From contig JAWOHE010000095.1 of the NCBI GenBank assembly GCA_046485285.1, positions 1 to 39,043 on the forward strand: a DNA stretch of 39,043 bases, given 5' to 3'. The position numbers and the translations under genes are program-made. The DNA is from a bacterium (GTDB lineage Bacteria; Hydrothermota; Tepidihabitantia; Tepidihabitantales; Tepidihabitantaceae). Positions 18,038-33,237 of the stretch are shown one piece after another. Each line of letters begins with the position of its first letter. Position 1 is the stretch's first letter. The notes below the pieces were generated by a model. That model did no database searches. It had not been told where the DNA came from and saw only the letters and a program-made list of their open reading frames with translations.

Positions 18038-19088
18038 CGCCGCCGCGGCGCGGGCGCAGGACCGCCATCACCCCGGAGGCAAGCACGAGCACGGCGACCG
18101 GGTAGAGCTCGTACAGCGCGCGGAACTCCTCGAGGAACCCGAAGACGAGCATCGTCGCGCCGAGCGGCAAGGCGATCCAGAACGCCCGCTTGAGGAAAAC
18201 CGGCGCCCGGCGCAGGCTGGCGATGACTGCCGCAGCGACCGGCAGGGCCAGCGCGTTGACCCCGCGCTCGGCGACTATCCGGCCCAGCGGCCGGGTCGCC
18301 AACTGACGTGCGATCCGGGTCGGCAGTGCGAGGTTCTGGGAAAGGTGCCACCACTCGAGCATGACGCCGGGCTGGTGCCGGTAGAGCAGCGCGATGCCGC
18401 CGCGGACCGCCAGCCAGCCGAGCAGTTGGACCGCCAGGCCGAAAAACAGCTTGCCGCGCGGCAGTTCTCTCCCCAGGTGCAGGAGCCAGACCAGTGTCAG
18501 CAGTATCGAGGTCTCCTTGTTGAGTGTCGCGAGCGCGAACGCGACGTAGTAGCCCGCCTCCCGACGCTCGGCAATCATCGCGAGGCCGAGCGTGAACAGG
18601 AGAAGACCGGCCGGGTCGTAGACGTAGTTGTGGTAGACGAACATCGTCGGCAGGAACAGGAGCGCGAGGACCGGGATGACATCGAGCCGCCAGCCCTCGA
18701 GCCCGAGCGTGACCGCGGCCAGCCGCCTGAGCGCGAGGGCGAACCCGACCAGCGCGCCAAGAAGCAGGGCGGCCGTCAGCGCGAACTCGAGCGGGTAATC
18801 GCGGGCGTACTCGAGCCTGAGCGCCGGGCGGATGAACTCCGCGGCCGCCTCTCTCGCCCGGGCCGGCACCGGGGCAAGGATGCCCTGCACGGTCCAGGGC
18901 ACGAGCACGCGGCCGACGAACGGCCGCCAGGCCCGGCTGTGGATGCTGTCCCCGAACCGGGCCTTGTCATAGGCGTCCATCCCGGGCGCGCGCACGAAGA
19001 CCGAGAGCACCCAGCCCGCGGCCACGATGTGAAGCAACACGAACGCGACCCGGACCGGACCCGGCCGGCGCGGCGCGACGGCTTCCAT
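18024..19088 (-). CDS. Polytopic membrane protein, possibly GT-C-fold glycosyltransferase-like
   Basis: Many TM segments; RPF.GRVLVPW, YD, LNKET and E.R...E motifs; ATG 19088 lies 6 nt after a -10 box. Confidence 0.65.
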   Translation of the reverse strand: MEAVAPRRPGPVRVAFVLLHIVAAGWVLSVFVRAPGMDAYDKARFGDSIHSRAWRPFVGRVLVPWTVQGILAPVPARAREAAAEFIRPALRLEYARDYPLEFALTAALLLGALVGFALALRRLAAVTLGLEGWRLDVIPVLALLFLPTMFVYHNYVYDPAGLLLFTLGLAMIAERREAGYYVAFALATLNKETSILLTLVWLLHLGRELPRGKLFFGLAVQLLGWLAVRGGIALLYRHQPGVMLEWWHLSQNLALPTRIARQLATRPLGRIVAERGVNALALPVAAAVIASLRRAPVFLKRAFWIALPLGATMLVFGFLEEFRALYELYPVAVLVLASGVMAVLRPRRGGVSAG

Positions 19089-19094
19089 CGCCAG

Positions 19095-19123
19095 AGAGTA
19101 AAGTCCGGCCGAGCGGCGGTCAA
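19095..19123 (-). promoter_or_regulatory. Promoter, likely leaderless transcript
   Basis: TTGACC-17-TACTCT-6 nt-ATG. Confidence 0.55.
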
Positions 19124-19135
19124 GCGCGCCGGCCC

Positions 19136-19165
19136 GGCCCGCCTGCGTGCGACGCGCGGACAGGC
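19136..19165 (+). repeat. 27-bp element family A, copy 1 (intergenic)
   Basis: ggc-ccgcctgcgtgcgacgcgcggaca-ggc. Confidence 0.85.
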
Positions 19166-19193
19166 TTGACCCCCGCCTGCCCGCGGCTATCCT
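19166..19193 (+). promoter_or_regulatory. Putative promoter for riboswitch-btuB
   Basis: TTGACC-16-TATCCT just upstream of the riboswitch. Confidence 0.55.
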
Positions 19194-19218
19194 TCTCGCA
19201 CCAAGGCGGCGGAAGACC

Positions 19219-19392
19219 GGATGACCGGTTGCCCGGCCCGATGCCGGGCACAGGGAAAGCCGTGGAAATCGGCTGCGGTCCCGCCCACTGTGAGCGGCCG
19301 CGTCGGCGCTGACGCGGCTCTGCCAGCCACTGGCCCCGGCCGGGAAGGCGGCAGACCCGGCATTGCCGGGCCGCGAGCCAGGAGACCTGTCC
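19219..19392 (+). ncRNA. Cobalamin (B12) riboswitch
   Basis: Conserved blocks AGGGAA, CCCGCCCACTGT, GCCACTG...GGGAAGG and B12 box GAGCCAGGAGACCTG, upstream of a TonB-dependent receptor; ends approximate. Confidence 0.92.
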
Positions 19393-19432
19393 GCCGCCAG
19401 GATGTCTCTACCTGCGTGGAAAGGAGCAGAGC

Positions 19433-21655
19433 ATGGCTGGCAAAGCTCGAACACTACTCACGGTCTTCGTCCTGTGCGCCACTGCCGTTGCGTTCCCGGT
19501 CGAATCGGGGACGGCCGGCACTGCGCCGGTTATCTTCATCGGCCGGGTCTTCGACGCCCGCTCCCGCCGGCCGGTCGCCGCGGCCGACGTGGAAGTCCCG
19601 GGTGTCGGCCTGTTTGCGACCGACGAGGAAGGGCTGTTCCGCTTCGAGACCGACGCCGGCGTCCTGACAGTCCGCGTCTCCCGCGTCGGCTACCGGCTGC
19701 GCACCTGGGCGAACGTCACCCCGGGCCCGGTGCGCGAATTCCCGATGATGCCCGAGCTCATCACGCTCGACGACGTCACGGTCACCGCCGGGCGGATGCC
19801 GCTGCCGATCGCGGCGTCCGGTCCGGTCACCATCATCGAGCTCGACGGCCGGCAGACCGCCGGGACGACCGACCCGGCCGAGGCCCTGCGCCGCGCGCCG
19901 GGTGTCGTCGGCAACGACTACGTCAACTACAGCTCGCTCTCGCTGCGCGGCACCGGCATCGAACACACCCTGCTCGCACTCGACGGCATCCGGCTCAACT
20001 CCTCGCAGAACGGCACCTTCGACCTGACAACCCTGCCGGTCGGGGTCGCCCGCCGGGCCGAAATCGCCCGCGGCGGCGGCTCCGCGCTCTACGGTTCGAG
20101 CCCGGTCGGCGGGACGGTCAACCTCATCACCGCCGAGCCGGAGCGTCTCGCCGCAAGCCTGCGCACCGGGGTCGGCGCGTTCGGCCGCCGCTACCTCGCG
20201 GCGACGCACGAGAACCGCCGCGCACCGCTCGGCTACCTGGTCGGCGTCGCGGCCGACGCCGCCGACAACGACTTCACCTGGCACGACGACTCCGGCCGCG
20301 CCCGCGAGATGGCAAACGCCGACCGCTCGTCGCTTGGTGTGTTCGGCAAGGGTTCATGGCGCGAGGCCGCCCACAGGTTCAACCTGTTCGGGCTCTGGTC
20401 TTCGACCGAGCGCGGCGTGCCGGGCCCGCGCGACTGGCCGTCGAGCTCCGCCCGACGCGACGACCGGCAGGGACTAGCCAGCCTCCGGCACACCTTCGAG
20501 CCGGACGAGCGGCTGCTGCTCGACAGCCGGGTGAGCGCGGGGCGCTCCTGGCAGCATTACCGCGACCCGGCGGCCTTCGTGCCGGCAAGCGACACCCACG
20601 CTCTCGCCACTGCGGGCGGCAAGGTTGACGCGATATGGACTCCGAAACACTGGCTGACGCTCGCGGCCGCGGTCGAGCTTGACCGGGACCAACTGGTCAG
20701 CTCCGCGGTAGGCGATGCCTCCCGGTCCGATTTCGCCGGCGTCGGCCAGGCCCGCATTGCCTGGCAGGGCCTGGCGGTCCAGCCCTCGCTGCGGGTCGAG
20801 CGACTGCGCCGGGACCGGCTCCCGGGCCGGAGCCCGACGACACCGCCCCGGTCCGACAGCGCCTCGCACCGCGCGACCACCGACGTCACCAGCCCCCGGG
20901 CGACGGTGACCTGGCACGGTTCCCTGCCCGCGCGCGGCGCGCAGGCGGGCCTGCCGGTCGCGGCCTGGGCCTCCTGCGGCCGCTCCTTTCGCGCCCCGAC
21001 CTTCAACGAGCTGTTCTGGCCAGAGGACGCCTGGACGCGGGGCAACCCGGCGCTCGAACCCGAATGGGCCACCGGCTACGAACTCGGGCTCAGGTCGGCC
21101 GGCGACATCTCTGCCCGGTCCCGGGCGACTTACCGCGCCAGCCTCGGCTGGTACCACAACTCGCTCACCAACCTCATCCAGTGGCGGCCCGACGACTCCC
21201 TTCGCTGGCGGCCGGTCAATGTCGCCGGCGCGGACATCTCCGGGCTCGAGGCCGAACTCGCGCTCGACCTCGGCGGCGTCGGGTTCAGCGGCGACGCGGG
21301 CTGGTGCCGTGCCCGGTCCGGCGGCCGGCGCCTGCTCTACCGGCCCGAGTTCAACGCCAGGGCCGAGGCGTGGGCCTCGGCGGAGTGGCAGCGGCTCGAC
21401 GCCCGGCTGACGCTCGCCGCCGACCTGTCGGGCGACCGGCTGACCGACCCCGCGCTCCCGGACACGACGCCGCAGGTGATGCCCGGCTACGGGACGCTCG
21501 ACGCCGGGGTCGCGCTCGGCTGGCAACCCGGCCCGGCGCGGTATGCGCTCTCGGCCGGCGTCCGCAACCTGGCCGACGCACGGTACGAAACCGTCCGGCA
21601 CTACCCGGTGCCGGGCCGGTCCTGGTACGCCGAGCTGGGTTTCGAGTTCCGCTGA
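19433..21655 (+). CDS. btuB: TonB-dependent receptor, probable vitamin B12 transporter
   Basis: Plug motifs (LRG...LDG.RL...EIARGGGSALYGS..GG.VNLIT), FRAPTFNEL, GNPALEPE, NL.D..YE, terminal PGR...F; riboswitch context. Confidence 0.85.
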   Translation: MAGKARTLLTVFVLCATAVAFPVESGTAGTAPVIFIGRVFDARSRRPVAAADVEVPGVGLFATDEEGLFRFETDAGVLTVRVSRVGYRLRTWANVTPGPVREFPMMPELITLDDVTVTAGRMPLPIAASGPVTIIELDGRQTAGTTDPAEALRRAPGVVGNDYVNYSSLSLRGTGIEHTLLALDGIRLNSSQNGTFDLTTLPVGVARRAEIARGGGSALYGSSPVGGTVNLITAEPERLAASLRTGVGAFGRRYLAATHENRRAPLGYLVGVAADAADNDFTWHDDSGRAREMANADRSSLGVFGKGSWREAAHRFNLFGLWSSTERGVPGPRDWPSSSARRDDRQGLASLRHTFEPDERLLLDSRVSAGRSWQHYRDPAAFVPASDTHALATAGGKVDAIWTPKHWLTLAAAVELDRDQLVSSAVGDASRSDFAGVGQARIAWQGLAVQPSLRVERLRRDRLPGRSPTTPPRSDSASHRATTDVTSPRATVTWHGSLPARGAQAGLPVAAWASCGRSFRAPTFNELFWPEDAWTRGNPALEPEWATGYELGLRSAGDISARSRATYRASLGWYHNSLTNLIQWRPDDSLRWRPVNVAGADISGLEAELALDLGGVGFSGDAGWCRARSGGRRLLYRPEFNARAEAWASAEWQRLDARLTLAADLSGDRLTDPALPDTTPQVMPGYGTLDAGVALGWQPGPARYALSAGVRNLADARYETVRHYPVPGRSWYAELGFEFR
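20923..20955 (-). repeat. 27-bp element family A, copy 2 (in frame in btuB)
   Basis: cctgcc repeated 27 bp apart (20923, 20950); adds LPARGAQAG. Confidence 0.8.
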
Positions 21656-21663
21656 CGCCGGCG

Positions 21664-22980
21664 TCAGCGGCCGGAAGAATCCGGCGGCGCGGCCCCGGGA
21701 GCCCGCGCCCGCTCAACCTCGGCCCGGCAGGCGTCGCGGACCGCGTTGAACTCTGCCCGGAAGCGGTCCGGCACCGGCTCGGCCCTCGGCGGAATCAGCT
21801 TCGCGGGGTTGACCGGCTTGCCGCCCTGGCGGGTCTCGAAGTGCAGGTGCGGGCCGGTCGCGTCGCCGGTCATCCCGACGTAGCCGATGGTCTGGCCCTG
21901 GCGAGCGCGCGCGCCGGTTCTCACCCCGGGCCCGAAACCGGACAGGTGGCCGTAGCGCGAGGACAGCCCGCCCGCGTGCCGGATCTCGACCAGCCGGCCG
22001 TAACCGCCGCGCCAGCCGGCGAAGGCTATCGAGCCGTCGGCGATCGCGCTGACCGGGGTGCCGGAAGGCGCCCCGTAATCGACGCCGTGGTGCTGGCGAT
22101 AGACCCGGTGAATCGGGTGGAACCTCATCCCGAAGTGCGACGTCACCTTGCGGAACTCGAGCGGCGAGCGCAGGATGGTCTTGCGGAGCGACTGGCCCTT
22201 CTCGTTGTAGTAGTCCCAGTGTCCCCGCGCATCCCTGAAGTAGAAGCCCCAGTAGTCGCGGTTCCGGCCGCGGTAGCGGGCCGCGTGGACCCGGCCGTAC
22301 TTGTAGAAGGCCGAGTCAACGAGGAACTTGTCGACGACGATCTCGAAAGTGTCGCCGTCGTTGGACTCGGTGAAGAAGTCGATGTCGTAGCGCAGGATGT
22401 CGGTGAACGCCATCACCAGCCAGGGGCCCTCGCCGAGGCCGACCAGCGAATGCCAGATTGACGTCCTGACCGTGCCGGCGACAACCGCGCGGACGGTGTC
22501 GACCGGCGCATCGAACCGCGCCGCGGCCGCGCCCGTCGAGTCAAACCTGACCCGGTAGCTGGTCGCGGCGTCCTTGTGCCAGTTCAGCGCCTCGAGTTCG
22601 AGCCCGCGGCAGAACAGCGTCACCGAATCCCCGGGCCGGAGGGTCCGGAAGTTGAAGTCGGTCAGCCGCAGGGCCGCCGCGGCCTGCTCGACCCGCGCCG
22701 GCGCCACTCCCAGCCGCCGGAGCATCGTGTGGAACAGCTCGCGCTCGCGCATCGCGTCGCCGCCGACGTAGAGCGACTCCGGGCAGGGCAGGTCCGGCCC
22801 GCAGGGAACCCGGTTGCGCCTGGGCGCGAGCCGCAGGACCATCAGGACCGCGCCGGCCGCGAGCAGCAGCGCAAGCGCGATGATTGCCGGTGACGGCAGG
22901 CCCCGCCGACCGGCTGTCTGCCCGCGCGTTGCGCGCAGGCGGGTCGGCCTCGACCCCGGTGCGGGTCCGGCCGCCCGCAA
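21664..22980 (-). CDS. M23 family metallopeptidase (MepM/Csd3-like)
   Basis: HHGVDY (HxxxD), YGHL, STGPH-like ATGPHLHF (HxH); N-terminal TM; TTG start with GGAG is tentative. Confidence 0.9.
   Translation of the reverse strand: MRAAGPAPGSRPTRLRATRGQTAGRRGLPSPAIIALALLLAAGAVLMVLRLAPRRNRVPCGPDLPCPESLYVGGDAMRERELFHTMLRRLGVAPARVEQAAAALRLTDFNFRTLRPGDSVTLFCRGLELEALNWHKDAATSYRVRFDSTGAAAARFDAPVDTVRAVVAGTVRTSIWHSLVGLGEGPWLVMAFTDILRYDIDFFTESNDGDTFEIVVDKFLVDSAFYKYGRVHAARYRGRNRDYWGFYFRDARGHWDYYNEKGQSLRKTILRSPLEFRKVTSHFGMRFHPIHRVYRQHHGVDYGAPSGTPVSAIADGSIAFAGWRGGYGRLVEIRHAGGLSSRYGHLSGFGPGVRTGARARQGQTIGYVGMTGDATGPHLHFETRQGGKPVNPAKLIPPRAEPVPDRFRAEFNAVRDACRAEVERARAPGAAPPDSSGR
22916..22945 (-). repeat. 27-bp element family A, copy 3 (N-terminus of M23 gene)
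   Basis: Minus strand gac-ccgcctgcgcgcaacgcgcgggca-gac. Confidence 0.85.
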
Positions 22981-23076
22981 CTAACGCTCCGCGCCCGGGC
23001 CCGGCCTGCCGGCCGTCATCCCGCTGGCCGTCGGGCCGGGCCGGCGAGCGGCGACTATTCTCCACATACTGGCGGA

Positions 23077-23104
23077 ATTCTAGCCGCGGCCACGGCCGGT
23101 TCAA
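23077..23104 (-). promoter_or_regulatory. Putative promoter for M23 gene 21664..22980
   Basis: TTGAAC-16-TAGAAT. Confidence 0.5.
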
Positions 23105-24591
23105 CCGCGGCCACCCGGCGCACCGCGCCGGGAGTCCGTTCCGGAATCGGGAAGGAACACCTCATCTGCCCCGCGCCGTGGGCGCGGCTTCCCGGCGGCC
23201 GCAGCGGCCACCCGGCTGATTATCGCCCGGCAGGAATCCCGGAAGCGCTCGAATTCCGGCCACTCGGCTGGACCGACCTCCTCGACCCTGCTCGGCAGGG
23301 CCTCGAGCGGGTCGACGTGACGGCCGTCCCGGAGCGTGCCGAAGTCGAGGTGCGCGCCTGACGAGAGCCCGGTCGAGCCGACGTACCCGACGAGGTCTCC
23401 CCGGCCCACCGCCGCGCCGGGCTTGATGCCCTCGGCGTATCGGCTCAGGTGCGAGTACCGGGTGACGAGCCCGGCCGTGGCGTGCTCGACCTCGACCGTC
23501 CGACCGTACCCGCTCCGCCAGCCCGCCCGGCAGACCGCGCCGGCCTCGACCGCTCGCACCGGCGTCCCATGGGATGCCTCGTAGTCAAGGCCGTTGTGCT
23601 GGATCCGGCGGCGCACGACCGGGTGCAGCCTCGGCCCGAAGTCGGAGGTCCGCCGCGCGCCGACAACCGGCGGGTAGCTCAGCACCGGGCCGAGCGAGCG
23701 GCCGTCCGCGTCGCAGTAGAAGGTCAACCCGCCCGGCGCTCCGCGCCGGGAGTCCGTCCCGGAATCCGGAAGGAACCCCTCATCTGCCCCGCGCCGCAGG
23801 CGTGGCTTCCCGGCGGCCGGGCCGCCGGGGGAATGGTGAAACCCCCAGGCCTCGACCACGCCGACGTAGCCCAGGGCGTGAATCCGGCCGAAGCCGTAAA
23901 AGCTGTCGCCGACCGCCAGCCGCTCGACCACGACCGCGAATGAGTCGCCGGGATGCATATCGCGCAGGCGCGGCAGGCGGTGCCGGAGGATGCTCGTGTA
24001 CGACGCGGCGAGCCGGTCGTCGGCGCCCGCGTCGAGCAGCGACTGCCAGAGCGAAACGCGGACGATCCCGACCAGCGCGACCGCGGTGGTCTCGACCGGC
24101 GCCATCACCCGGCACGCCTCGGCGGTGTCCGGCCCGAAGCGGACCTCGAAGCTGGTTGCGAGGTCGACGTCATAGCGCAGGCGGGCAGGCCGCGAGCCCG
24201 CAAGAGGCGAAGCCTGTGCTCCTGCATACTCGACCGTGACCGAATCCCCCGGCAACATCCGCTGGAAGTCGAAGTCGACCCGGCCCAGCGCCGCCACCGC
24301 CGCCCGCGCGTCCTCGGGCGATAGGTCAAGCGCGGCGAGCACCTGCGCCAGGTTCTCGCCCGGCCCGACCACCCGGCCGGAGAAGCTGCCCGCAGGCAGG
24401 ACCGGCACGCTCTCCACCGGCGCCGCCGCCTCGACCGCGCTCGCGGCCGGCGGCCGGGAGCGGGCGCAGACGCCGACGACGGCCCCGGCGCCGGCCGCGG
24501 CAAGCAGGATGACCGCCGTCGGCCTCGAAGCACGAGAGCGACAGCCCGGCACGCTACCCGAGGCTCCCGATGCCGACCGCCATCGCGTCAA
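23101..24591 (-). CDS. Second M23 family peptidase (paralog) carrying three repeat-element insertions
   Basis: HNGLDY, YSHL, SSGAHLDF; aligns with neighbour once inserts are removed; start codon uncertain. Confidence 0.85.
   Translation of the reverse strand: MTRWRSASGASGSVPGCRSRASRPTAVILLAAAGAGAVVGVCARSRPPAASAVEAAAPVESVPVLPAGSFSGRVVGPGENLAQVLAALDLSPEDARAAVAALGRVDFDFQRMLPGDSVTVEYAGAQASPLAGSRPARLRYDVDLATSFEVRFGPDTAEACRVMAPVETTAVALVGIVRVSLWQSLLDAGADDRLAASYTSILRHRLPRLRDMHPGDSFAVVVERLAVGDSFYGFGRIHALGYVGVVEAWGFHHSPGGPAAGKPRLRRGADEGFLPDSGTDSRRGAPGGLTFYCDADGRSLGPVLSYPPVVGARRTSDFGPRLHPVVRRRIQHNGLDYEASHGTPVRAVEAGAVCRAGWRSGYGRTVEVEHATAGLVTRYSHLSRYAEGIKPGAAVGRGDLVGYVGSTGLSSGAHLDFGTLRDGRHVDPLEALPSRVEEVGPAEWPEFERFRDSCRAIISRVAAAAAGKPRPRRGADEVFLPDSGTDSRRGAPGGRG
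23107..23216 (-). mobile_element. Multi-hairpin element family C, copy 1, forming the M23 C-terminus
   Basis: Near-identical to 23729-23829; flanked by 13-bp direct repeat gcggccacccggc (23107-23119, 23204-23216). Confidence 0.75.
23729..23829 (-). mobile_element. Multi-hairpin element family C, copy 2, in-frame 93-bp insertion in M23 gene
   Basis: ccgcc repeated 93 bp apart; 31 aa absent from the paralog. Confidence 0.8.
24200..24226 (-). repeat. ~24-bp element family B, copy 1 (in frame in M23 gene)
   Basis: gca repeated 24 bp apart around aggcgaagcctgtgctcct; adds AGAQASPL. Confidence 0.75.
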
Positions 24592-24600
24592 CCGCTCTTC

Positions 24601-24629
24601 GAAAGGCGGAGCCCGTGCTCCGGCAAACC
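24601..24629 (-). repeat. Family B, copy 2 (intergenic)
   Basis: gaaaggcggagcccgtgctccggcaaacc, 3 substitutions versus 26741-26769. Confidence 0.65.
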
Positions 24630-24661
24630 CTCGCCGCGCCGGTCACGTCCCCAGGCAAGGC

Positions 24662-26809
24662 TCACTCGACGACGGACAGCCGGCGCGTGACCAAACGGCT
24701 GCCCGAGCGCAGATGCAGGAAGTACAGCCCGGGCGCCAGGCGCGCGCCCCGACAGCCGACCAGGTCGAAGCTCACCGGCTGGCCGGCCCCGGGCGCCACG
24801 TCCAGCCTCCGCGCGAGGTGCGAGCGGCCCCCGACGTCGAGCACCCTGGCCTCGAGCGGCGGCGAGCCCGCCGGGAGGTCAACCGTCAGCTTCGCCCGTC
24901 CCTCGAACACGCTCACCGCCGAGGCGGAGAGCTCCGGCGCCGAGCGCGGCCCCGGGTCCAGGCTGCGCGCGTCGAGGAAATCCGCGCTGACCGCCTGCCG
25001 CCGCCAGGGGCGGTGGCCCGGCCCGGGCAGACCGGTATCCGGGTCAACCGCCACCTCGAACAGCCGGTCGTCCGCCCACGAACGGTAGAGCACCGAGTGG
25101 ATGCCCGGCTGCCTCACCCGCAGGCCGGCCCAGAACCCGGCGCTCTCTCCCGGCCGCAGGCGCCAGCCGCGCTCCCAGCCGCCCAGCCACTCGAGCAGGT
25201 GGTATCCGCCGAGCTTCGTCCGCCGGGCCGCGCCCGGGCCCGGTCGCTGGGGCTGAACCGCCAGCACGTCCCAGACCGCGGTGTCAAGCGCGACCACCAC
25301 CCCGAACCGGTACGGGCTCACGCTCCCGCGGTTCTCGACCTTGACGTCGAGCCGCACCGCGCCGGTCCCGCCCTGCCGGTCGAGCACGACCGCGACGCTT
25401 GAGACGAGCTCGACCGGCCCGAACTCGTAGCCCGGGTAGTTGACATAGACCGGGTTGGTAATGACCCCGAAGCGGCCGTTCGCCCGCACGAGCTCCGCCC
25501 GCACGAAGCCGGAGTCCCAGGAACAGACGAGGCTGCTCCACTCGTGGCTGAAATCGCCCGGCGCGGAAAATCGCCACCGGAACAACTCGCCGTGCCGGGT
25601 CAGCACCCGCAACTCCTCATTGGGGCTGACGCTCTCGGCCTCGACCCGGAACCGGACCGGCCGCGCGCCCGCGCTGACCCGGACAAAATCGCCCATCGCG
25701 AGGTTCCAGTACCCCTTGCCGCTCGTGTCGGCGTAGAGGTACACCCGGCTTCCATCCGGCCGGTCACAGGCCATCACGCGGCCGAGCTTGAACGCTCGCA
25801 ACAGCGTATCCGGGTGGGTCGACGATGCCCGGACCCGCGAGCAGGGCACGAGCGGCCGCTCGTGCTGGTTGTCGCCGTGGAAGTCGGAACTCCCGATGCC
25901 GGCGATGGCGTGCCCGGCCACGAGCAGGTCGTGCCACCATTCCACCGCCAGTTCCTCGTTCTCGGCGAACCCGGTCCGGCCGTTCATCAGCTCGATCCCG
26001 TCAATCCCCGGGTCGAGCAGCGGGTAGCGGTGCCACCGCCAGTCCCACGCGCGGGGATGATTGATGTGGACGACGGCGCCGCGGTAGCTTGCGTCGTCAA
26101 TCATCTCCGGGACCGACCGGACCGCGACCGCGGCCGGCCCGGCGAGCCCGAGCAGGTTGGCGTGCCCGGAGTCGCTCGTCCACTCGGTCCCGCGGATCGG
26201 CTCGAGCAGGCCAACCGCGTGGAACGCGGTGTCGTAGCACTGGTCGAGCGTGTTGTGGTCGGTAATGCCGAGGAAGCGCCCGTCCGCCGCGGCCGCCCGC
26301 GCCAGCAGTTCATGGACGGTCAGGGCGCCATCCGAGTACACGGTGTGCGTGTGGCTCGAGCCGAGGAACCACGAGTTCGGACTCGCCCAGAGCCTTGCGT
26401 CAAAGCTGTCGGCAGGGGCATCGGTGAAGAGCGTCAGCCGATTGCCGTTCGGCCGGAGCAGGCCGACCCGGTCCGAGAAATCCAGCGCGCGAACCAGCGT
26501 CCGCGCGACCGGCCCGGGCTCGACGGTGGCGACGAGCGAGTCATTGAGCCGGACCTCGAACGACTCGACGCCGGCGAGCGCGAGGTACAGCCCGGCCGGC
26601 CGGGCGTCGACGAGCGAGAACTCGTGCGACCACGCCCCGCCCGAGAGCCTCGCCGGCCCGTCGAAGACGACCTCGTCGCCGGCCATCGGGGCGAGGCCGA
26701 CCGCGGTCCCGGCCGCGACCGCCAGGGCCAGGACGAAACGGAAAGGCGAAGCCTGTGCTCCTGCAAACCTCCAAAACCTGCTCACGGCTCGGCGGCGCGC
26801 CACGGGCAC
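24662..26809 (-). CDS. PHP-domain (CehA/McbA-like) metallohydrolase with CTD-like end
   Basis: HTHTVYSDG, ITDHN, GTEWT..GHAN, INHP, GSSDFH; ends PGLYFLHL..RRLSVVE. Confidence 0.85.
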   Translation of the reverse strand: MPVARRRAVSRFWRFAGAQASPFRFVLALAVAAGTAVGLAPMAGDEVVFDGPARLSGGAWSHEFSLVDARPAGLYLALAGVESFEVRLNDSLVATVEPGPVARTLVRALDFSDRVGLLRPNGNRLTLFTDAPADSFDARLWASPNSWFLGSSHTHTVYSDGALTVHELLARAAAADGRFLGITDHNTLDQCYDTAFHAVGLLEPIRGTEWTSDSGHANLLGLAGPAAVAVRSVPEMIDDASYRGAVVHINHPRAWDWRWHRYPLLDPGIDGIELMNGRTGFAENEELAVEWWHDLLVAGHAIAGIGSSDFHGDNQHERPLVPCSRVRASSTHPDTLLRAFKLGRVMACDRPDGSRVYLYADTSGKGYWNLAMGDFVRVSAGARPVRFRVEAESVSPNEELRVLTRHGELFRWRFSAPGDFSHEWSSLVCSWDSGFVRAELVRANGRFGVITNPVYVNYPGYEFGPVELVSSVAVVLDRQGGTGAVRLDVKVENRGSVSPYRFGVVVALDTAVWDVLAVQPQRPGPGAARRTKLGGYHLLEWLGGWERGWRLRPGESAGFWAGLRVRQPGIHSVLYRSWADDRLFEVAVDPDTGLPGPGHRPWRRQAVSADFLDARSLDPGPRSAPELSASAVSVFEGRAKLTVDLPAGSPPLEARVLDVGGRSHLARRLDVAPGAGQPVSFDLVGCRGARLAPGLYFLHLRSGSRLVTRRLSVVE
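26741..26769 (-). repeat. Family B, copy 3 (in predicted N-terminus of the PHP gene)
   Basis: gaaaggcgaagcctgtgctcctgcaaacc; 22 bp identical to copy 1. Confidence 0.75.
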
Positions 26810-28489
26810 TCAGGACCCACTGCGGCCGGTCAGCACCGCCCGGAGCGTCGTCGCCCGCCGGCCGTCGACCAGCCGGAACAGGTAACTGCCCGCGCTCGCC
26901 CGCCGGCCGGACTCATCGAGCCCGTCCCAGCCGGCCTCGGTCCTGCCCGCGACATCCAGGCTCCGCACCAGCCGCCCGGTCGCGCCGTAGACCCGGAGCC
27001 GGCTCCCGTGCCGGGCCGGGGCCGTCAGCTTCAGCCGGAAGCCGCCCGTGCCGATGCTCGGCCGGACCGAGGCCAGCCCGGCCGCCCGGGGCCCGCCTGC
27101 GCGCAACGCGCGGGCAGGCCGCGCCGGGATCTCAGCGAGCCCGGTCGGGACCGTCGCGCCCGCCAGCTTGGCGACCGTCGCCACCGCCGCTCTCGTCGCG
27201 TCGGTCGCCAGCGGCAGGTTGTTCGTTCCGCAGTTCACGAAGTAGAGCGGCCCGACGGTATCCCCGGTGGTGTGATAGGCCGGCGTGAAGTCACGCTCGA
27301 TGCCCATCAGGGCCGGGTAGCCCCTTGCCAGGAACGGGTAGTGGTCGGAGTTCGGCGAGACGTAGCTCAGCACGCGCCGCCTCGTCTTCAGGTCCGTGAA
27401 CGTATCGGCCTGGGCGATGTAGAAATCGACCAGCCAGCCGCAGGGCGGGTTGGCGGTCTTGCCGATGACATCGAGCGAGTCGCGGTTCTCCCGGCCGTAT
27501 GAGATCATGTCGAAGTTGAGCACGGCCTTGATCGAGTCGCCGCGGCGGTAGCAGAACTCCGCGAAGCTGTCCGAACCATAGAGCCCCTGCTCCTCGCCGG
27601 CGAATGCCATGAAGTACACGGTATTCTCGAACTCGACGTCCTGGAAGACGCGGGCCGCCTCGAGGACCGCGGTCGTGCCCGAGGCGTTGTCGTCCGAGCC
27701 GGGCGCGTGGGTCAGCCGGTTCTGCTCCTCGGAAGTCGCGTCGGCGTGGCCGCAGACGCCGTAGATGCGCTGGGGGCTCGAGGTCCCGTAGCGGACGCCG
27801 ATGACGTTCGGCGCAAAGCCGTTCCGGAACGGGAACTCGAACACGGTGTCACAGCCGTACGACTCCAGCCGGCCGCGAATCCACGCCATCGCCGCACGGC
27901 AGGAGTCGGTCGTCGAGTAGCGGGTCCGGAAGCCCTGCATTCGCCGGATCGAGGCCTCGACCGAGTCCTGCGAGACCAGCCCGACCAGGCCCCATACCAG
28001 GCTGTCGCTCACCGCGGGCAGGGCCCTTCCCTCATTCTGCATTCTGCATTCTGCAATCTGCAATCTGCAATCTGACTTCCTCGGCCGAAGGTGTATCCGC
28101 GCCAGCTCGACTCCCAGCCCGTCCAGCCCCGCGGCCCGGGCGGAGTCGGTCAGGAGCACTGCGCCCCGGGCGTCGAGGTACAGCACTTCACCGCGGCCCG
28201 CCAGCGACGGCAGCGGCCCGCGCAGGGTCGTCGCGTACATGTAGTGCTTGCCGTCCGGGTCCCGGTCGAGCCGCCTGCACTCGAAGCTCCGGGCCAGCGC
28301 GGCGAGCTCGGCCTCGTCGGCCGTCACCAGGCACCCCGCCTCGAGCTCGAACACGACGGTCACGTCGGCCGCGTCGACCGCGGCCACGTCTCTGCCTGGC
28401 CCGTACTCCACGTACGCCAGCCATTCCGGCCCGGCCGCGAATGCAAGCGCGACCAGGACTGAGGACAGGAGGGCCGGTCTCTTCATCAT
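26810..28489 (-). CDS. M28 family aminopeptidase with signal peptide and FlgD-type CTD
   Basis: GHAD, PGSDDNASG, GEEQGLYGS, NFDMI, SDHYPF, YHT..D; start set at ATG 28489 after GGAG. Confidence 0.9.
   Translation of the reverse strand: MMKRPALLSSVLVALAFAAGPEWLAYVEYGPGRDVAAVDAADVTVVFELEAGCLVTADEAELAALARSFECRRLDRDPDGKHYMYATTLRGPLPSLAGRGEVLYLDARGAVLLTDSARAAGLDGLGVELARIHLRPRKSDCRLQIAECRMQNEGRALPAVSDSLVWGLVGLVSQDSVEASIRRMQGFRTRYSTTDSCRAAMAWIRGRLESYGCDTVFEFPFRNGFAPNVIGVRYGTSSPQRIYGVCGHADATSEEQNRLTHAPGSDDNASGTTAVLEAARVFQDVEFENTVYFMAFAGEEQGLYGSDSFAEFCYRRGDSIKAVLNFDMISYGRENRDSLDVIGKTANPPCGWLVDFYIAQADTFTDLKTRRRVLSYVSPNSDHYPFLARGYPALMGIERDFTPAYHTTGDTVGPLYFVNCGTNNLPLATDATRAAVATVAKLAGATVPTGLAEIPARPARALRAGGPRAAGLASVRPSIGTGGFRLKLTAPARHGSRLRVYGATGRLVRSLDVAGRTEAGWDGLDESGRRASAGSYLFRLVDGRRATTLRAVLTGRSGS
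27090..27120 (+). repeat. 27-bp element family A, copy 4 (in frame in M28 pre-CTD linker)
   Basis: ggcc repeated 27 bp apart around ccgcctgcgcgcaacgcgcgggca. Confidence 0.85.
28033..28074. repeat. Heptamer tandem repeat (CATTCTG)3(CAATCTG)3, in frame in the M28 gene
   Basis: Six 7-bp units = 42 bp = 14 codons (DCRLQIAECRMQNE). Confidence 0.9.
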
Positions 28490-28545
28490 CACCACGCTCC
28501 TGCGGTTTGTCTGACCTCGGGCGCGACCCATTCGCGCCACCTGCA

Positions 28546-28573
28546 ATTCTAGAACCCGACGCGACCTAGTCAA
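28546..28573 (-). promoter_or_regulatory. Putative promoter for M28-PHP genes
   Basis: TTGACT-16-TAGAAT. Confidence 0.55.
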
Positions 28574-28577
28574 AGCC

Positions 28578-29429
28578 TCACACCAGCAGCCACAGGCTCA
28601 GCGCCATCAGCGCCATCCCGGAGACGATGCCGAGCACGCTCAGGTGCTCGCGGCCGTAGGCGTAGGAACCGGGAATGAGCTCGTCGAAGGAAATGAAGAC
28701 CATCAGGCCGGCGACGGTCGCCAGCACGTAGGCGAGCAGGGTCTCGGTCAGGAACGGCAGCAACACCAGCGCAGCCAGCCCGGCGCCGACCAGCTCCGCC
28801 GCCCCGGACACGAACGACCAGAGGAACGCCTTGCGCCGCGACCCGGTCGCGCAGAACACCGGGGCCGCCACCGCGATGCCCTCCGGGATGTTGTGCAGGG
28901 CGATCGCGAGGGCAATCGCCAGCCCGAGCCGCGGGTCCTTGACCGCCGCGGCGAAGGTCGCCATCCCCTCGGGCAGGTTGTGCAGCCCGATGCCGATGGC
29001 AATCAGCACTCCCGCGCGCATCAACCGCTGGGGCGGGATGGCACCGGCCCCGCCGCCCCGGTGCCGGCGGCCGTGCCCGTGACCCCGTCCCCCGGGGCCT
29101 GCCGGGTTCGGGCCGGGCTCGGCGCAGTGGTCGACCCCGCCGATGTGCTCGCTGATGAACAGGTGCGGAACGACGAGGTCAACGACGAACATCAACCCGA
29201 GCCCGCCGAAGAAGGCCAGGACCGCCGGCGCGAAACCAAGCAGGCCGACCGACTCCCGCAGCAGCTCGGCGAAACTCACGAACATCATCACCCCGGCCGC
29301 GAACCCGAGCATGAACGCCATCACCTTCGGGCCGGGCCGGCGGAAGAGCATCGCGATGAAGCTGCCGACCGTGGTCGCCAGCGCCGCCCCGGCCGAGATC
29401 GCCAGCGCCAGCAGGACGTCACCGTGCAT
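28578..29429 (-). CDS. zupT: ZIP family divalent metal transporter
   Basis: LGFAAGVM, HNLPEG and HNIPEG, AGLMVFISFDELIP; His/Gly-rich loop. Confidence 0.9.
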   Translation of the reverse strand: MHGDVLLALAISAGAALATTVGSFIAMLFRRPGPKVMAFMLGFAAGVMMFVSFAELLRESVGLLGFAPAVLAFFGGLGLMFVVDLVVPHLFISEHIGGVDHCAEPGPNPAGPGGRGHGHGRRHRGGGAGAIPPQRLMRAGVLIAIGIGLHNLPEGMATFAAAVKDPRLGLAIALAIALHNIPEGIAVAAPVFCATGSRRKAFLWSFVSGAAELVGAGLAALVLLPFLTETLLAYVLATVAGLMVFISFDELIPGSYAYGREHLSVLGIVSGMALMALSLWLLV

Positions 29430-29904
29430 CGCGCCCGCCCTTCCCGGCCCGCGCCCGCAGCTCTGCCCCGCGCTCGCCCCGGACGAACTCGACCAGCCGC
29501 TCGAGCCGCCGGGTCGTTTCCGCGCTCAGGACGTGCTCGATCGCGCAGGCGTCGGTCGCGGCCGTCGCCTTGCCGACGCCGAGCACTTCGCCAAGAAATT
29601 CCTCCAGCACCCGGTGCCGCCGGTAGACCCGTTCCGCGGCCCGCGCCCCGCGCGCGGTCAGCTCGACCGCCCCATAGCGCTCGTGCCGCACCAGCCCGCG
29701 CCGCTCGAGCCCGACGAGCGCGCTGACGACCGACGGCTTGCTGACCCCCAGCCGAGCGGCGAGACCGGTGACCCGGACGCTCCGCCCGCTTCGACCGGCA
29801 AGGTGGATCGCCTCGAGGTAGTCCTCGGCGCTCGCGCCCAGCCCGCCGGCGCGCAACGCGCGGGCAGGCCCGCCGGCGCGGTCGACAGCCTTTTTGTTAG
29901 CCAT
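29419..29904 (-). CDS. DtxR/MntR family metal-dependent regulator
   Basis: SAEDYLEAI, HTH LGVSKPSV, LT..G, RHRVLEEFL, DACAIEH. Confidence 0.92.
   Translation of the reverse strand: MANKKAVDRAGGPARALRAGGLGASAEDYLEAIHLAGRSGRSVRVTGLAARLGVSKPSVVSALVGLERRGLVRHERYGAVELTARGARAAERVYRRHRVLEEFLGEVLGVGKATAATDACAIEHVLSAETTRRLERLVEFVRGERGAELRARAGKGGRDAR
29841..29880 (+). repeat. 27-bp element family A, copy 5 (in frame in regulator N-terminus)
   Basis: 13-bp direct repeat gcccgccggcgcg at 29841 and 29868, 27 bp apart. Confidence 0.85.
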
Positions 29905-29911
29905 GCCTAAC
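29896..29911. promoter_or_regulatory. DtxR-family operator overlapping the regulator's start codon
   Basis: GTTAGGCATGGCTAAC (minus strand), 16-bp palindrome with one mismatched pair, TTAGG..CTAA-type core. Confidence 0.7.
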
Positions 29912-29938
29912 TCTAGCGCCGGCCGGCCCGGCTGTCAA
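29910..29938 (-). promoter_or_regulatory. Promoter of regulator-zupT operon (leaderless)
   Basis: TTGACA-17-TAGAGT-5 nt-ATG. Confidence 0.7.
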
Positions 29939-29947
29939 GCCCGTCGA

Positions 29948-29975
29948 TTGACTTCCCGGGGGACGGTCCTAGAAT
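29948..29975 (+). promoter_or_regulatory. Promoter of kinase-fba operon
   Basis: TTGACT-16-TAGAAT-9 nt-ATG. Confidence 0.6.
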
Positions 29976-29984
29976 GGCCGGGCG

Positions 29985-30911
29985 ATGGTCTACACCGTCA
30001 CCCTCAATCCCGCGCTCGACCGGACGTTGTTCGTCGACAGCCTGGCCCTGGGCGGGTCGAACCGGATCCGCCGCGAGGCCCGCTACGCCGGCGGCAAGGG
30101 CATCGACGTCTCGCGCGCGCTGGTCGAGATGGGCGTGCCGACCGTCGCCCTCGGCCTCGTCGGCGGGTTCGACGGCAAGGAGTTCGAGGGCCGGCTCCTT
30201 AACGAGGGCGTGGCCTGCGACTTCACGCGCATCGCCGGCGAAATCCGCACCAACGTCGTCATTCACGACGAGTCCGGCGCCGAGACCGCCCTGCTCGCCC
30301 GGGGCCCGGAGGTCCAGCCGGTCGAGTTGATGAGCTTCATCGACCACCTCGAGGGCATCGCCGGCGGCAGCTTCCTGGTCGTGTCCGGGTCCCTTCCCCC
30401 CGGGCTGACCCCGGCGGTCTACCGTCGCATCATCTCGGTCGGCAACGACCGGGGCTTCACGACCGTCCTCGACGCCTCCGGCGAGGCGCTGCGCTCCGGC
30501 ATCCGAGCCCGGCCCCGCATCATCAAGCCCAACCGCGACGAGCTTGCCGAGCTCGCGGGGACCGCGCTCGCCGACATCCCGGCGATGGTCCGCTTCTGCC
30601 GGACCCTCGAGAAGGAGGTCGCCACCGTCCTCGTCTCGCTCGGCGCGGACGGCATCCTGCTCGTCGAGTCGAAGCGTGCCCTGCACGCCCGGCCGCCGAA
30701 GGTCGAGGTCGCGAGCACGGTCGGCGCCGGTGACTGCGCGGTCGCCGGCTTCGTCGCCGGCCTGCTGATGAAGGAGAGCCCGGCCGACCGCCTGCGCCGG
30801 GCGGTCGCGGCCGGGACCGCCGCGACGATGACCCCGGGCACCGGCATCTGCTGCCGCCGGGACATCGCCCGGCTGCTGCCCGGGATAACGGTCACCGAGG
30901 TCGCGGCGTGA
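29985..30911 (+). CDS. pfkB: 1-phosphofructokinase family hexose kinase (PfkB/FruK)
   Basis: YTVTLNPALD, GGKGIDVSR, SGSLPPG, IKPN..EL, TVGAGD. Confidence 0.92.
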   Translation: MVYTVTLNPALDRTLFVDSLALGGSNRIRREARYAGGKGIDVSRALVEMGVPTVALGLVGGFDGKEFEGRLLNEGVACDFTRIAGEIRTNVVIHDESGAETALLARGPEVQPVELMSFIDHLEGIAGGSFLVVSGSLPPGLTPAVYRRIISVGNDRGFTTVLDASGEALRSGIRARPRIIKPNRDELAELAGTALADIPAMVRFCRTLEKEVATVLVSLGADGILLVESKRALHARPPKVEVASTVGAGDCAVAGFVAGLLMKESPADRLRRAVAAGTAATMTPGTGICCRRDIARLLPGITVTEVAA

Positions 30912-31828
30912 AGCTGGTCCCGGGCCGCGAGCTGCTCGACGCCGCGGCGGCCGGCGGTCACGCGCTCGGCGCGTTCAACTTCTCGAACCTCGAATTCCTC
31001 CAGGCCATCGTCGACGCGGCCGGCACGACCCGCACCCCGGTCTTCCTCGCGACCAGCGAGGGCGCGGTGAAGTACGCCGGCCTCGACAACCTCGTCGCGC
31101 TGGCGCGGGCCGCGGCCGCGCGCTGCCCGGTCCCGCTCTGCCTCCACCTCGACCACGGCCGCGACCTCGAGCTCATCCGGGCCTGCATCGAGGCCGGCTG
31201 GACCTCGGTGATGATTGACGCCTCGGACCTGCCGTTCGAGGAAAACGTCGCGAAGACCGCCGCGGTCACGAACCTCGCCCGACCCCGGGGCGTCTCGGTC
31301 GAGGCCGAGCTCGGCCGGCTCGTCGGCATCGAGGACTCGGTCCGGGTCGAGGAGCGCGACGCGGTGCTGGTCGACCCGGACCAGGCCGCGGATTTCGTTC
31401 GCCGCACCGGCATCGATTCGCTCGCGCCCGCGGTCGGCACCGCCCACGGCGCGTTCAAGTTCAAGGGCGAACCGAGGCTCGACATCGCCCGGCTCGACCG
31501 CGTCCGCGCCGCGACCGGCGGCCTCCCGCTCGTCCTTCACGGCGCCTCGAACGTGCCGCCCGCCGTGCTCGAGGCCTGCCGCGCGGCCGGGGTCGAGGTC
31601 ACCGGCGCGAAGGGCGTACCCGAAGACCAGCTCCGCGCCGCCATCCGCGCCGGCGTCCGGAAAGTCAACGTCGATACCGACCTGAGGCTCGCGTTCCTCG
31701 CCGCGGTGCGCTCGAGCATCCTCGCCCGACCGGGCGAGTTCGACCCACGCCGCTACCTTGGCCCGGGCCGGGACGCGGTTCGCGCGCTCGTCATCGAACG
31801 GGTCCGCCTGCTCCGGGAGCCGGCGTGA
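30908..31828 (+). CDS. fba: Class II fructose-1,6-bisphosphate aldolase
   Basis: GAFN, LHLDHG, SVMIDAS, VEAELG, GTAHGAFK, LVLHGAS, KVNVDTD. Confidence 0.95.
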   Translation: MKLVPGRELLDAAAAGGHALGAFNFSNLEFLQAIVDAAGTTRTPVFLATSEGAVKYAGLDNLVALARAAAARCPVPLCLHLDHGRDLELIRACIEAGWTSVMIDASDLPFEENVAKTAAVTNLARPRGVSVEAELGRLVGIEDSVRVEERDAVLVDPDQAADFVRRTGIDSLAPAVGTAHGAFKFKGEPRLDIARLDRVRAATGGLPLVLHGASNVPPAVLEACRAAGVEVTGAKGVPEDQLRAAIRAGVRKVNVDTDLRLAFLAAVRSSILARPGEFDPRRYLGPGRDAVRALVIERVRLLREPA

Positions 31829-32637
31829 GCGCCCGGCGGCCTGGCCGCCGGGAAACCGCGCCTTCGGCGCGGGGGGGAGAAGGACGCCATCAGGATTCCG
31901 GAACGGACTCCCGGCGCGTGGCGCCGGGCGGAACTCTGCTCGCCGGGGTGCGGCGCCGCATCGCCCGCTCGGACGGGGTGATGGCAATCACCGGCCCCGG
32001 CATCCTGACCTTCCGCGGCGACGAGGATCTCCGACGCGCGGCCGACCCGCCGGAGCTTGCCACGCCCGAGGCGTTCCGGGCCGACCCGGTCAGGGTCTGG
32101 CAGTGGTACGACGAGCGGCGCCGGGAAATCGCCGGCGCCGAGCCCGGCCCGGCCCACCTCGCGCTGGCCCGGCTCGAGGCCGCGGGCAAGGACGTCTTCA
32201 TCGTCACCCGGAACGTCGACGACTTCCACGAGCGCGCCGGCTCGAGACAGGTCGTCCACGTCCACGGCTCGATCTGGCGGGTCCGCTGCGAGCGCGACGG
32301 CTTCACCGACGAGAATCGCCAGGTCCCGCTCCTCGAACTGCCGCCGACCTGCCCGTGCGGCAACGACCTCAGGCCCGACGTGGTCTGGTACGGCGAGCGG
32401 CTCCCGCCCGGCCCGCTCGAGGCGGTTCGCGCCCACCTGCTCGAGGCCCGCTCCAACGTCCTGCTCATCGTCGGCGCCGAGGCGTCCTTCGGCCACGTTG
32501 TCCAGTGGGCCCACGAGGCCCACGAGCAGGGCGCGCTTGTCGTCACCGTGAACCCGCGCCCGACCGGGCTCGAGTCCATCGCCGACTTCCGGCTCGAAGG
32601 CCGGCCCGACGACATCCTGCCCGGACTGGTTCCCTGA
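31825..32637 (+). CDS. Sir2/CobB-like NAD-dependent deacylase homologue with degenerate motifs
   Basis: LATPEAF..DP..VW.WY..RR, VTRNVDDFHERAGS, HVHGS, LRPDVVWYGE; start uncertain. Confidence 0.75.
   Translation: MSARRPGRRETAPSARGGEGRHQDSGTDSRRVAPGGTLLAGVRRRIARSDGVMAITGPGILTFRGDEDLRRAADPPELATPEAFRADPVRVWQWYDERRREIAGAEPGPAHLALARLEAAGKDVFIVTRNVDDFHERAGSRQVVHVHGSIWRVRCERDGFTDENRQVPLLELPPTCPCGNDLRPDVVWYGERLPPGPLEAVRAHLLEARSNVLLIVGAEASFGHVVQWAHEAHEQGALVVTVNPRPTGLESIADFRLEGRPDDILPGLVP
31829..31931 (+). mobile_element. Multi-hairpin element family C, copy 3, at the fba/sirtuin junction
   Basis: Shares ggccgccgggaa.ccgcgcc-NNN-ggcgcgg and gattccggaacggactcccggcgc-NNN-gcgccggg with the 23-kb copies, in opposite orientation. 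Confidence 0.75.
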
Positions 32638-32640
32638 CAT

Positions 32641-33237
32641 ATGGACGAGGGCCGCTTCCTCGAGCTCTGCCGCGCCCGGCGCTCGGTCCGCCGGTTCAGC
32701 GAAGGGCCGGTCGAGCGCGAGAAGCTCGCGTATTGCCTCGAGGCCGCCCGGCTCGCGCCGTCGGCCGACAACGACCAGCCTTGGCGCTTCATCGTCTTCG
32801 ACGACCCGGCGGCCAAGGCCGCGCTCGCCGACGCCGCCTTCTCCGGCATCTACCGTACCTCCCGGCGAATGGCCCACGCGCCCGTGCTCGTCGTGCTTGC
32901 CGTCCGCGAGAACCTGCTCATCAACCGCGTCGGCGGCGGCGTCCAGGGCACCCCGTTCCAGCTCATCGACGCCGCGATTGCCGGCGAGCATTTCGTCCTC
33001 GCCGCGGCCGAGCAGGGCCTCGGCACCTGCTGGGTCGGCTGGTACGACGCCCGCGCGCTCCGCCGCCACCTCGGACTCGGCCGGGGCCTGCGCCCGGTCT
33101 GCCTCATCGCCGTCGGCTACCCGGCCGCCGGCTGGAAGCCGGGCCCGGCCCGACGCCGGCCGCTCGGCGACATCGCCGACTGGAACGCCCCGCCGCGCGG
33201 CCCGGCCCGCCTGCGTGCGACGCGCGGACAGGCTTGA
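32641..33237 (+). CDS. Nitroreductase family protein
   Basis: RRSVRRF, LAPSA.N.QPW.F, LAAAEQGLGTCWVG, IAVGYP. Confidence 0.92.
   Translation: MDEGRFLELCRARRSVRRFSEGPVEREKLAYCLEAARLAPSADNDQPWRFIVFDDPAAKAALADAAFSGIYRTSRRMAHAPVLVVLAVRENLLINRVGGGVQGTPFQLIDAAIAGEHFVLAAAEQGLGTCWVGWYDARALRRHLGLGRGLRPVCLIAVGYPAAGWKPGPARRRPLGDIADWNAPPRGPARLRATRGQA
33204..33233 (+). repeat. 27-bp element family A, copy 6 (last codons of nitroreductase)
   Basis: Identical to copy 1; 33199-33238 equals 19131-19170 over 40 bp. Confidence 0.88.

Follow-up and report, generated by a model that had tools for sequence, protein, structure and literature searches.

We describe a short, hairpin-rich repeat that occurs three times in a 39,043-nucleotide stretch of DNA (hereafter the window; contig JAWOHE010000095.1, our C53) from a bacterium of the family Tepidihabitantaceae (Hydrothermota). 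The initial annotation of the window had marked these three copies as a multi-hairpin element translated within proteins. We find the copies at essentially the same places. Alignment to the genome-wide family resets their boundaries, always within the ranges first given (Table 1). Together with their flanks, the three copies have a mean column identity of 81%. Two are carried by a gene for an M23 family metallopeptidase. The third begins 3 nt past the stop codon of an aldolase gene and overlaps the called start of a Sir2-family gene by 11 nt.

Table 1. Element copies, neighbouring genes and other features of the window.
Feature	Position	Strand	Remarks
Element copy 1	23114..23215	+	Read on the - strand, gives the M23 gene its stop and final ~34 residues (AAAAGKPRPRRGADEVFLPDSGTDSRRGAPGGRG); flanked by the direct repeat GCGGCCACCCGGC
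Element copy 2	23732..23829	+	Internal to the M23 gene, antisense; adds 30 residues net
Copy 2, hairpin H1	23732..23750
Copy 2, hairpin H2	about 23753..23774
Copy 2, hairpin H3	23789..23805
Copy 2, hairpin H4	23809..23829
Element copy 3	31832..31928	-	Intergenic; occupies the space from the aldolase stop to the Sir2-family gene
M23 family metallopeptidase gene	23101..24552	-	483 aa as called; carries copies 1 and 2
Paralogous M23 peptidase gene	21664..22980	-	438 aa, without element; internal "empty" comparison
Class II fructose-bisphosphate aldolase gene	30908..31828	+	Directly upstream of copy 3
Sir2-family gene	31918..32637	+	Downstream of copy 3; start uncertain, Pfam domain well downstream of the element
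Sigma-70-like promoter match, TTGAAC-16-TAGAAT	23104..23077	-	Just after the element-supplied M23 stop, before the paralogous M23 gene
Cobalamin riboswitch	19209..19408	+	Rfam RF00174, 66.5 bits, E 2e-14; directly upstream of the 740-aa frame
Reading frame, 740 aa	19433..21655

The three copies belong to a family of 37 in their own genome (assembly G000: 2.34 Mb, 102 contigs, 69% GC, 88% complete). A genome-wide search, as proposed with the initial annotation, recovered 37 copies by iterated nhmmer (E<=1e-3), and the same 37 were found by a covariance model built from 25 of them. The genome copies are 73-91% identical to those of the window. At least three further remnants exist (C61:23364, C96:12806-12852, and the complex locus C76:3440-3620).

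The element is an interspersed, DNA-level repeat of ~98 nt that encodes no gene. In element orientation it consists of four hairpins in a fixed order. H1 (CCCGGCGC-nnn-GCGCCGGG) is followed by the conserved linker AGTCCG and a variable middle hairpin, H2 (e.g., TTCCGG-aat-CCGGAA or TTCCGG-aatcctg-CCGGAA). A pyrimidine-rich stretch, TTCTCCTTCTCTCC, then leads to H3 (CCGCGCC-nnn-GGCGCGG), after which come CTT and H4 (CCCGGCGGCC-n(1-6)-GGCCGCCGGG). H4, H3, and H1 correspond to the left, inner, and right hairpins that had been described at first, all of which are present; the more variable H2 is found besides. Alignments of the copies show near-invariant stems and variable loops. When folded as single-stranded DNA and compared with dinucleotide shuffles, the window copies have z-scores of -2.4, -2.9, and -4.6, and 3, 0, and 0 of 200 shuffles, respectively, fold as well. 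By RNA folding energy, the two strands of the 37 copies are equally stable (mean difference -0.08 kcal/mol, p=0.91; sense more stable in 20/37), as expected of a DNA palindrome and not of an RNA gene. RNAalifold, run on a MAFFT alignment of the 37 copies, returned 8 pairs only, because loops of unequal length were misaligned, and its result was not used.

Some copies depart from this plan. An extra hairpin of ~20 nt, GGAACTGCTGGCGCAGCAC, lies within the H1 loop of five copies (C90_16146, C96_7334, C95_5702, C11_17236, and C48_8346) and of the remnant at C61:23364, and defines a subfamily. H4 is absent from five copies. Partial tandem or nested copies occur at C45 24023-24160, C25 3760-3883, C75 19627-19750, and C76 3440-3620; in these, one arm serves both as the 3' arm of an H4 and as the 5' arm of the H1 that follows, or two H4 stand in tandem. 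Judged from their arrangement, these loci hint at insertion into existing copies or at end-to-end junctions.

The conserved unpaired linker carries two GANTC sites (GAGTC and GAATC) in 26 of the 37 copies (e.g., 23732-23829). GANTC density is 16 per kb in the element and 3 per kb genome-wide. The motif is kept while its N varies in seven of nine aligned related copies, though not in G023. A connection with CcrM methylation was considered. Against it, the genome shows no depletion of GANTC, and the assembly, 88% complete, yields no PF01555 methyltransferase. We leave this as an observation.

The repeat is lineage-specific. BLAST among 41 relatives shows that it is essentially confined to its own genome. 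The covariance model, applied to 44 genomes of the family at E<=0.01, detects diverged members in G002, which is of the same genus (8), and in G014 (7), G023 (2), and G059 (1). Across the phylum, sampled evenly with 151 genomes, it matches only G000 and G014. These diverged relatives keep the same order of four hairpins with other stem sequences. H3 is CCGGGGC/GCCCCGG in G014, G059, and G023, vs CCGCGCC/GGCGCGG here; H1 is CCCGTCGT/ACGACGGG in G059; and H4 is CCGCGCGTC/GACGCGCGG in G014 and CCGGGCATC/GATGCCCGG in G059. The compensatory stem differences between genera were read by eye from an alignment and from single-sequence folds. A coding-like frame runs through the element at four of eight loci of related copies in other genomes.

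Wider searches returned chance matches or nothing. The exact pattern GCGCCGGGAGTCCGNNCCGGAA has nine single matches among 185,579 species genomes (none in Rickettsia) and eight among JGI metagenome contigs; these have the pattern alone in common and are attributed to chance. It has no match among IMG/VR viral contigs. The collections scanned with this pattern may not include the records of the genome itself. Rfam finds nothing at the chance-match loci, and blastn of copy 2 against plasmids gives no match. One DNA contig dataset (share 0.05), compared with window positions 13001-33000 at 85% likeness, yielded short diverged pieces only, with no contig bridging an element site. We found no published description of this repeat family in the full-text literature, a search that most subscription journals lie outside.

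About half of the copies lie in protein-coding frames. Twenty of the 37 share at least 30 nt with a called frame; 12 of these copies are internal to genes and eight supply a C-terminal tail. The internal hosts comprise D-Ala-D-Ala ligase (Ddl), the glycine-cleavage P protein (GcvPA), Fpg/MutM, a class I/II aminotransferase, a 4Fe-4S dicluster protein, the CCA-adding/polyA polymerase, a YgiQ-like radical SAM protein, a molybdopterin oxidoreductase, a WD40-like protein, a TPR protein, NuoD at its N-terminus, and the M23 peptidase of the window. The tail copies provide the last 10-35 codons and the stop, in hosts that include PPDK, MiaA, an LPG-synthase-like protein, glycogen synthase, a transglutaminase-like protein, and, again, the M23 peptidase. 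The inserts are spanned or flanked by Pfam domains. In alignments to PDB chains, residues 68 and 71 of 1L1T bracket the Fpg insert, and the Ddl insert corresponds to about residue 172-176 in solved Ddl structures. The Fpg insert belongs to the extra-hairpin subfamily and is thus 37-38 residues long. The genes for GcvPA, MiaA, PPDK, NuoD, the YgiQ-like protein, and others that carry an insert are each present only once in the assembly.

The in-gene copies are read in all three antisense frames and also in sense frames, and the element is stop-free in the frame used. The use of several frames indicates that no one peptide is under selection. Of 21 overlaps between a copy and a gene, 16 have the element antisense to the gene (two-sided binomial p about 0.03). 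Stop codons were considered as the cause of this bias and rejected, as 88/111 sense frames are open vs 92/111 antisense frames. Among intergenic copies that abut the 3' end of an upstream gene, four are sense and four antisense.

Empty orthologous sites, which the initial annotation had proposed to look for, are found at ten loci in genomes of the same genus (G001-G004). BLAST pieces of the flanking regions of these genomes have about 66-90% identity, and the alignments are interrupted precisely at the element; junction alignments were added. The net insert is 90 nt (30 aa) in the M23 peptidase, 93 nt in Ddl, and 84 nt in the WD40-like protein relative to G002. It is 87 nt in GcvPA, 90 nt in the aminotransferase, and 81 nt in the ferredoxin-type Fe-S protein, each in three of three comparisons. 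It measures 93, 93, 93, and 99 nt in the CCA/polyA polymerase, 111, 111, and 114 nt in Fpg (which has the long 5' variant), and 99, 99, and 114 nt at the NuoC/NuoD junction, where the element enters the N-terminus of NuoD. One intergenic site gives 99 and 107 nt. Thus, at nine intragenic loci, the net length is a multiple of three in every comparison but one. Such lengths speak for translation of the inserts and against their removal.

At other loci the comparison is less direct. One flank of C59_18880 is unaligned in the relatives, and C8_6014 lies in a variable region (net +70/+130). The flanks of five intergenic copies (C61_10106, C61_17108, C61_18496, C75_19627, and C7_24607) are on different contigs in the relatives. 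C75_19627 stands at a synteny break relative to G004 and G001, while both of its flanks are on one contig in G003. A class-III aminotransferase gene (C61:17209-18399) is bracketed by two inverted copies (C61 17108-18592; locus L037 9109-10593), and its orthologue in G002 and G004 lies on contigs with other neighbours.

The M23 peptidase of the window shows both kinds of in-gene copy. Copy 2 was first read as an in-gene addition of 31 residues; the addition stands, and its size is 30 residues net relative to 42 aligned homologues. In all 42, its insert columns are filled at 0-3 of 33 positions, at boundary residues only. These 30 residues precede the catalytic domain and separate two beta strands. 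Copy 1, as had been proposed, gives the protein its C-terminus, and the 13-nt direct repeat around it is genuine; the native C-terminal end is replaced by the 34-residue tail. The nearest orthologues (412-418 aa) have neither element-coded stretch. The closest of all (P0005), encoded on a 325-kb JGI contig, is 67% identical by BLASTP and has no insert. An AlphaFold2 model built from a 43-sequence alignment has a mean predicted local distance difference test score (pLDDT) of 82.2 and a predicted template modelling score (pTM) of 0.76. Its pLDDT falls below 50 only at residues 1-10, 12-47, 250-273, and 463-482, which are the N-terminal region and the two element-coded stretches.

In G004 (C172; locus L023 1529-2602), a gene for a staphylococcal-nuclease homologue (357-aa frame, PF00565) lies between the two M23 paralogues. 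This gene is missing here, and copy 1 occupies that junction (window 22980-23224). Copy 1 thus marks the point of a deletion or rearrangement.

The element is multi-copy, its insertions are lineage-specific, about half of its copies fall in reading frames, and those within genes leave the frame intact. Of the identities first offered, a MITE/REP-like interspersed insertion element (after miniature inverted-repeat transposable elements and repetitive extragenic palindromes) has been borne out by the 37 copies, the empty orthologous sites, and the copies read within proteins. Taken as a whole, the data are probably best explained by a non-autonomous, ~98-nt, four-hairpin repeat that makes coding insertions like those of the Rickettsia palindromic elements (RPEs). 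Under this explanation, the element would have been copied into many sites after the lineage split from its sister species. In-gene copies would persist only where the host protein tolerates the 27-38 extra residues as a disordered surface loop or C-terminal tail, and where the net length is a multiple of three; they would then be transcribed and translated with the host gene. More tentatively, the hairpin ends may be recognised in trans by an enzyme encoded outside the element. The leading candidate would be a single-strand transposase of the HUH/Y1 type, which we favour because of the hairpin ends, the lack of a regular target duplication, and targets that resemble the element's own termini.

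The initial annotation also held that the element targets sites similar to its own end. This is upheld in part. A CCGG/CCSGGCG-like motif occurs in six of ten empty sites (Ddl, M23, aminotransferase, WD40-like, NuoC/D, and CCA), and overlaps or matches one or both termini by 2-10 nt. The junctions themselves are fuzzy, because the relatives are only about 70-88% identical, and no copy-specific target duplication is significant. Single copies do have flanking direct repeats: 13 nt at copy 1 and 8-10 nt at seven others, some with one mismatch. Subfamily pairs (C8_10775 with C8_6014, and the two C75 copies) have the H4 loop and 3' arm in common. This indicates that the whole H1-H4 unit moves together.

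A number of points weigh against this reading as a whole. Genes were called with our own crude codon-usage caller (1963 calls, 88% coding). The WD40-like insert is 79 or 86 nt relative to G004, which is not a multiple of three. Net inserts run from 81 to 114 nt against an element of ~98 nt, and at several sites fall 5-17 nt short of the unit, which points to imprecise insertion, replaced target bases, or later trimming. At C59_12767, the relatives are only ~27 nt shorter. Furthermore, stems hardly vary within the genome: 97.6% of cells in the H1 and H3 stems are paired, and a double change occurs in one pair only, not above shuffles. Support for structural constraint thus comes only from the comparison between genera, and within-genome stem pairing is no argument for or against structural selection. 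The element also lacks the classic MITE signature. Same-copy and cross-copy flank matches average 6.2 and 6.0, respectively (permutation p=0.11), giving no significant copy-specific target duplication, and there is no clear terminal inverted repeat (TIR) beyond the 7-nt CCCGGCG/CGCCGGG arms common to two hairpins.

No mobilising gene is tied to the element either. The single Y1_Tnp gene, which resembles REP-associated tyrosine transposases (RAYTs), is on G000:C44, and its frame is shifted by a 71-bp tandem duplication (L057 1793-1863, 1864-1934). The duplication looks perfect, and the gene is either recently inactivated or misassembled. Its flanks contain no element or H1-like hairpin (nhmmer E>=17). 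Y1 genes are present in 24 of 44 family genomes, including three of the same genus without the element, and the element is present in five of 44; the two do not track each other. A palindrome, GTAACTCCCCCGGT-A-ACCCCGGGAGTTAC, lies just downstream of the Y1_Tnp gene. Among assembly repeats of at least 150 bp, which are surface-protein paralogues, there is no parent insertion sequence (IS) with matching ends; the assembly is an 88%-complete draft, and IS elements commonly go unassembled.

The strongest rival, itself unlikely, is a spread that needs no transposase. Microhomology template switching or short-patch recombination at the CCGG-rich hairpin ends would insert the element and replace look-alike target bases. 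Empty sites that resemble the termini are consistent with this (e.g., CCGGC in Ddl, GACCCCGGCG in the aminotransferase, TCCGGCCGGGCG in M23, and GCCGGGGCCGGTCGGGGG in the WD40-like protein), as are the net inserts below element length, the lack of a regular target duplication or a linked transposase, and the hairpin arm shared in partial tandem copies. However, CCGG-rich strings are common at 69% GC and the resemblance may be chance, while the relatives compared are too diverged to give exact junctions. A family of 37 dispersed copies with subfamilies, whose unit moves as one piece, looks more enzyme-driven.

The second identity first offered, a structured RNA, is not supported. An RNA gene or cis-element (small RNA, terminator/attenuator, or mRNA stabiliser) that is present in frames only incidentally is very unlikely, even though the element has four stable hairpins whose architecture is kept across genera with different stems, and a linker, TTCTCCTTCTCTCC, that could pair with Shine-Dalgarno sequences. 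Several intergenic copies also lie 2-3 nt from gene 3' ends, and a few have T-rich sequence after H4. However, the comparison with Rfam that had been proposed gives no match to the element at the gathering threshold or at E<=1, and finds only the cobalamin riboswitch in the window. Folding shows no strand asymmetry, the orientation of intergenic copies is balanced, and about half of the copies overlap frames, mostly in antisense. A terminator scan of 22800-32200 calls no copy.

Removal of the element after transcription or translation, in the manner of an intron or intein, would leave the host proteins unaltered. That essential-looking genes carry the element speaks for it, with nothing direct. 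We consider it highly improbable: net lengths in multiples of three at nine intragenic sites are needed only if the element is translated, and no stop interrupts the frame used. At 98 nt, the element is far under the size of a self-splicing intron and matches no ribozyme family, and 30 residues do not make an intein. An assembly or binning artefact, for which the 102-contig, 88%-complete draft leaves some room, is scarcely credible, as the copies differ by 9-27%, lie within long contigs, and keep frames, and related copies occur in four independently assembled genomes.

We note one further idea on how a mobilised four-hairpin repeat might choose its sites. In the aminotransferase copy, the 3' arm of H4, GACCCTGG, coincides with host codons for Y-Y-T-R-V that are also present in the empty G004 orthologue (GACCCCGG). 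Its 5' arm, CCGGGGTC, departs from the consensus CCCGGCGGCC and pairs with the 3' arm. The end hairpins might therefore be matched to the target, or partly rebuilt from it, in a guide-like or target-templated homing of a gene-less, 98-nt element. Judged from this one copy, the idea is a long shot. If true and general, the element end and the target would base-pair at insertion, which would explain the end-like targets.

The family has consequences beyond this genome. Protein-coding palindromic repeats were first presented as a peculiarity of Rickettsia, and here we describe a clear case with many copies, in a high-GC lineage that is uncultured and not related to Rickettsia. Roughly one copy in three lies inside a gene, with hosts that include housekeeping enzymes (Ddl, GcvPA, Fpg, the CCA-adding enzyme, NuoD, and the aminotransferase), and another fifth give their hosts a new C-terminus. 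The family is further evidence that selfish hairpin DNA serves generally as a source of new protein loops and tails in bacteria. In practice, inserts of 27-38 residues can lead to errors in annotation, in orthology calls, and in structure prediction when genomes are assembled from metagenomes. With H1 to H4, the family also offers a defined substrate in the search for the enzyme by which gene-less hairpin repeats are moved.

Among known systems, the single-strand transposition of IS200/IS605 elements uses hairpin ends, makes no target-site duplication (TSD), and selects targets that resemble the sequence beside the left end. The present element is similar in its hairpin-forming ends, lack of a regular TSD, and end-like targets. 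It differs in that no transposase lies in or beside it, and no fixed tetra- or pentanucleotide target can be defined.

REPs and bacterial interspersed mosaic elements (BIMEs) are, like this family, multi-copy, GC-rich stem-loops with species-specific sequence that lie mostly near gene 3' ends or in genes. REPs are reported inside coding regions of several species, where they encode 20-30 residues (Di Nocera, De Gregorio and Rocco 2013, PMC3733652). REPs are single hairpins of 20-40 bp with a GTAG or CGTC tag at one end, whereas this element is a fixed 98-nt unit of four different hairpins without a tag. No GTAG or CGTC stands at the hairpin feet in the copy alignments, where the flanks are GAGTCC, CTCT/CTTC, and CTTCC. 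REPINs are mobilised by RAYTs, while here the sole RAYT-like gene has no flanking element. The initial suggestion of a REPIN thus fails in the strict sense, given the missing tag, a sole Y1 gene without an adjoining element, and Y1 genes that do not track it.

The likeness to MITEs such as ERIC, Correia, BOX, and Nezha, as these are summarised in PMC10969869, lies in small, non-coding, structured, dispersed units with occasional in-frame intragenic fusions, and in lineage-specific insertions with empty sites. Unlike MITEs, the element has no regular TSD, no parent IS found among the repeats of the 88%-complete draft, and a "TIR" of only 7 nt.

The closest parallel is with the RPEs, RPE-1 to RPE-10 (Ogata et al. 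2000 Science 290:347; 2002 Genome Res 12:808), which we take as summarised in PMC10969869. According to that summary, R. conorii has 44 RPE insertions, nearly half of them in open reading frames (ORFs); here, 20 of 37 copies overlap frames and 12 are internal. As far as the summary goes, both are short, palindromic, interspersed repeats that enter unrelated housekeeping genes in frame and add a few tens of fold-compatible residues, and neither encodes a transposase or has a mobiliser tied to it. The present element is GC-rich and ~98 nt long, vs ~150 nt for the RPEs as summarised, and forms four separate hairpins in place of one long palindrome. It also uses several frames and both orientations, and its host, at 69% GC, is not a Rickettsia and belongs to another phylum. 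The two are likened by behaviour and description alone, and homology with RPE-1 to RPE-10 is unlikely. Regardless, this is a many-copy, short palindromic repeat with a large in-frame fraction that is absent from orthologues. It is a new family of RPE-like coding repeats, of a kind already known.

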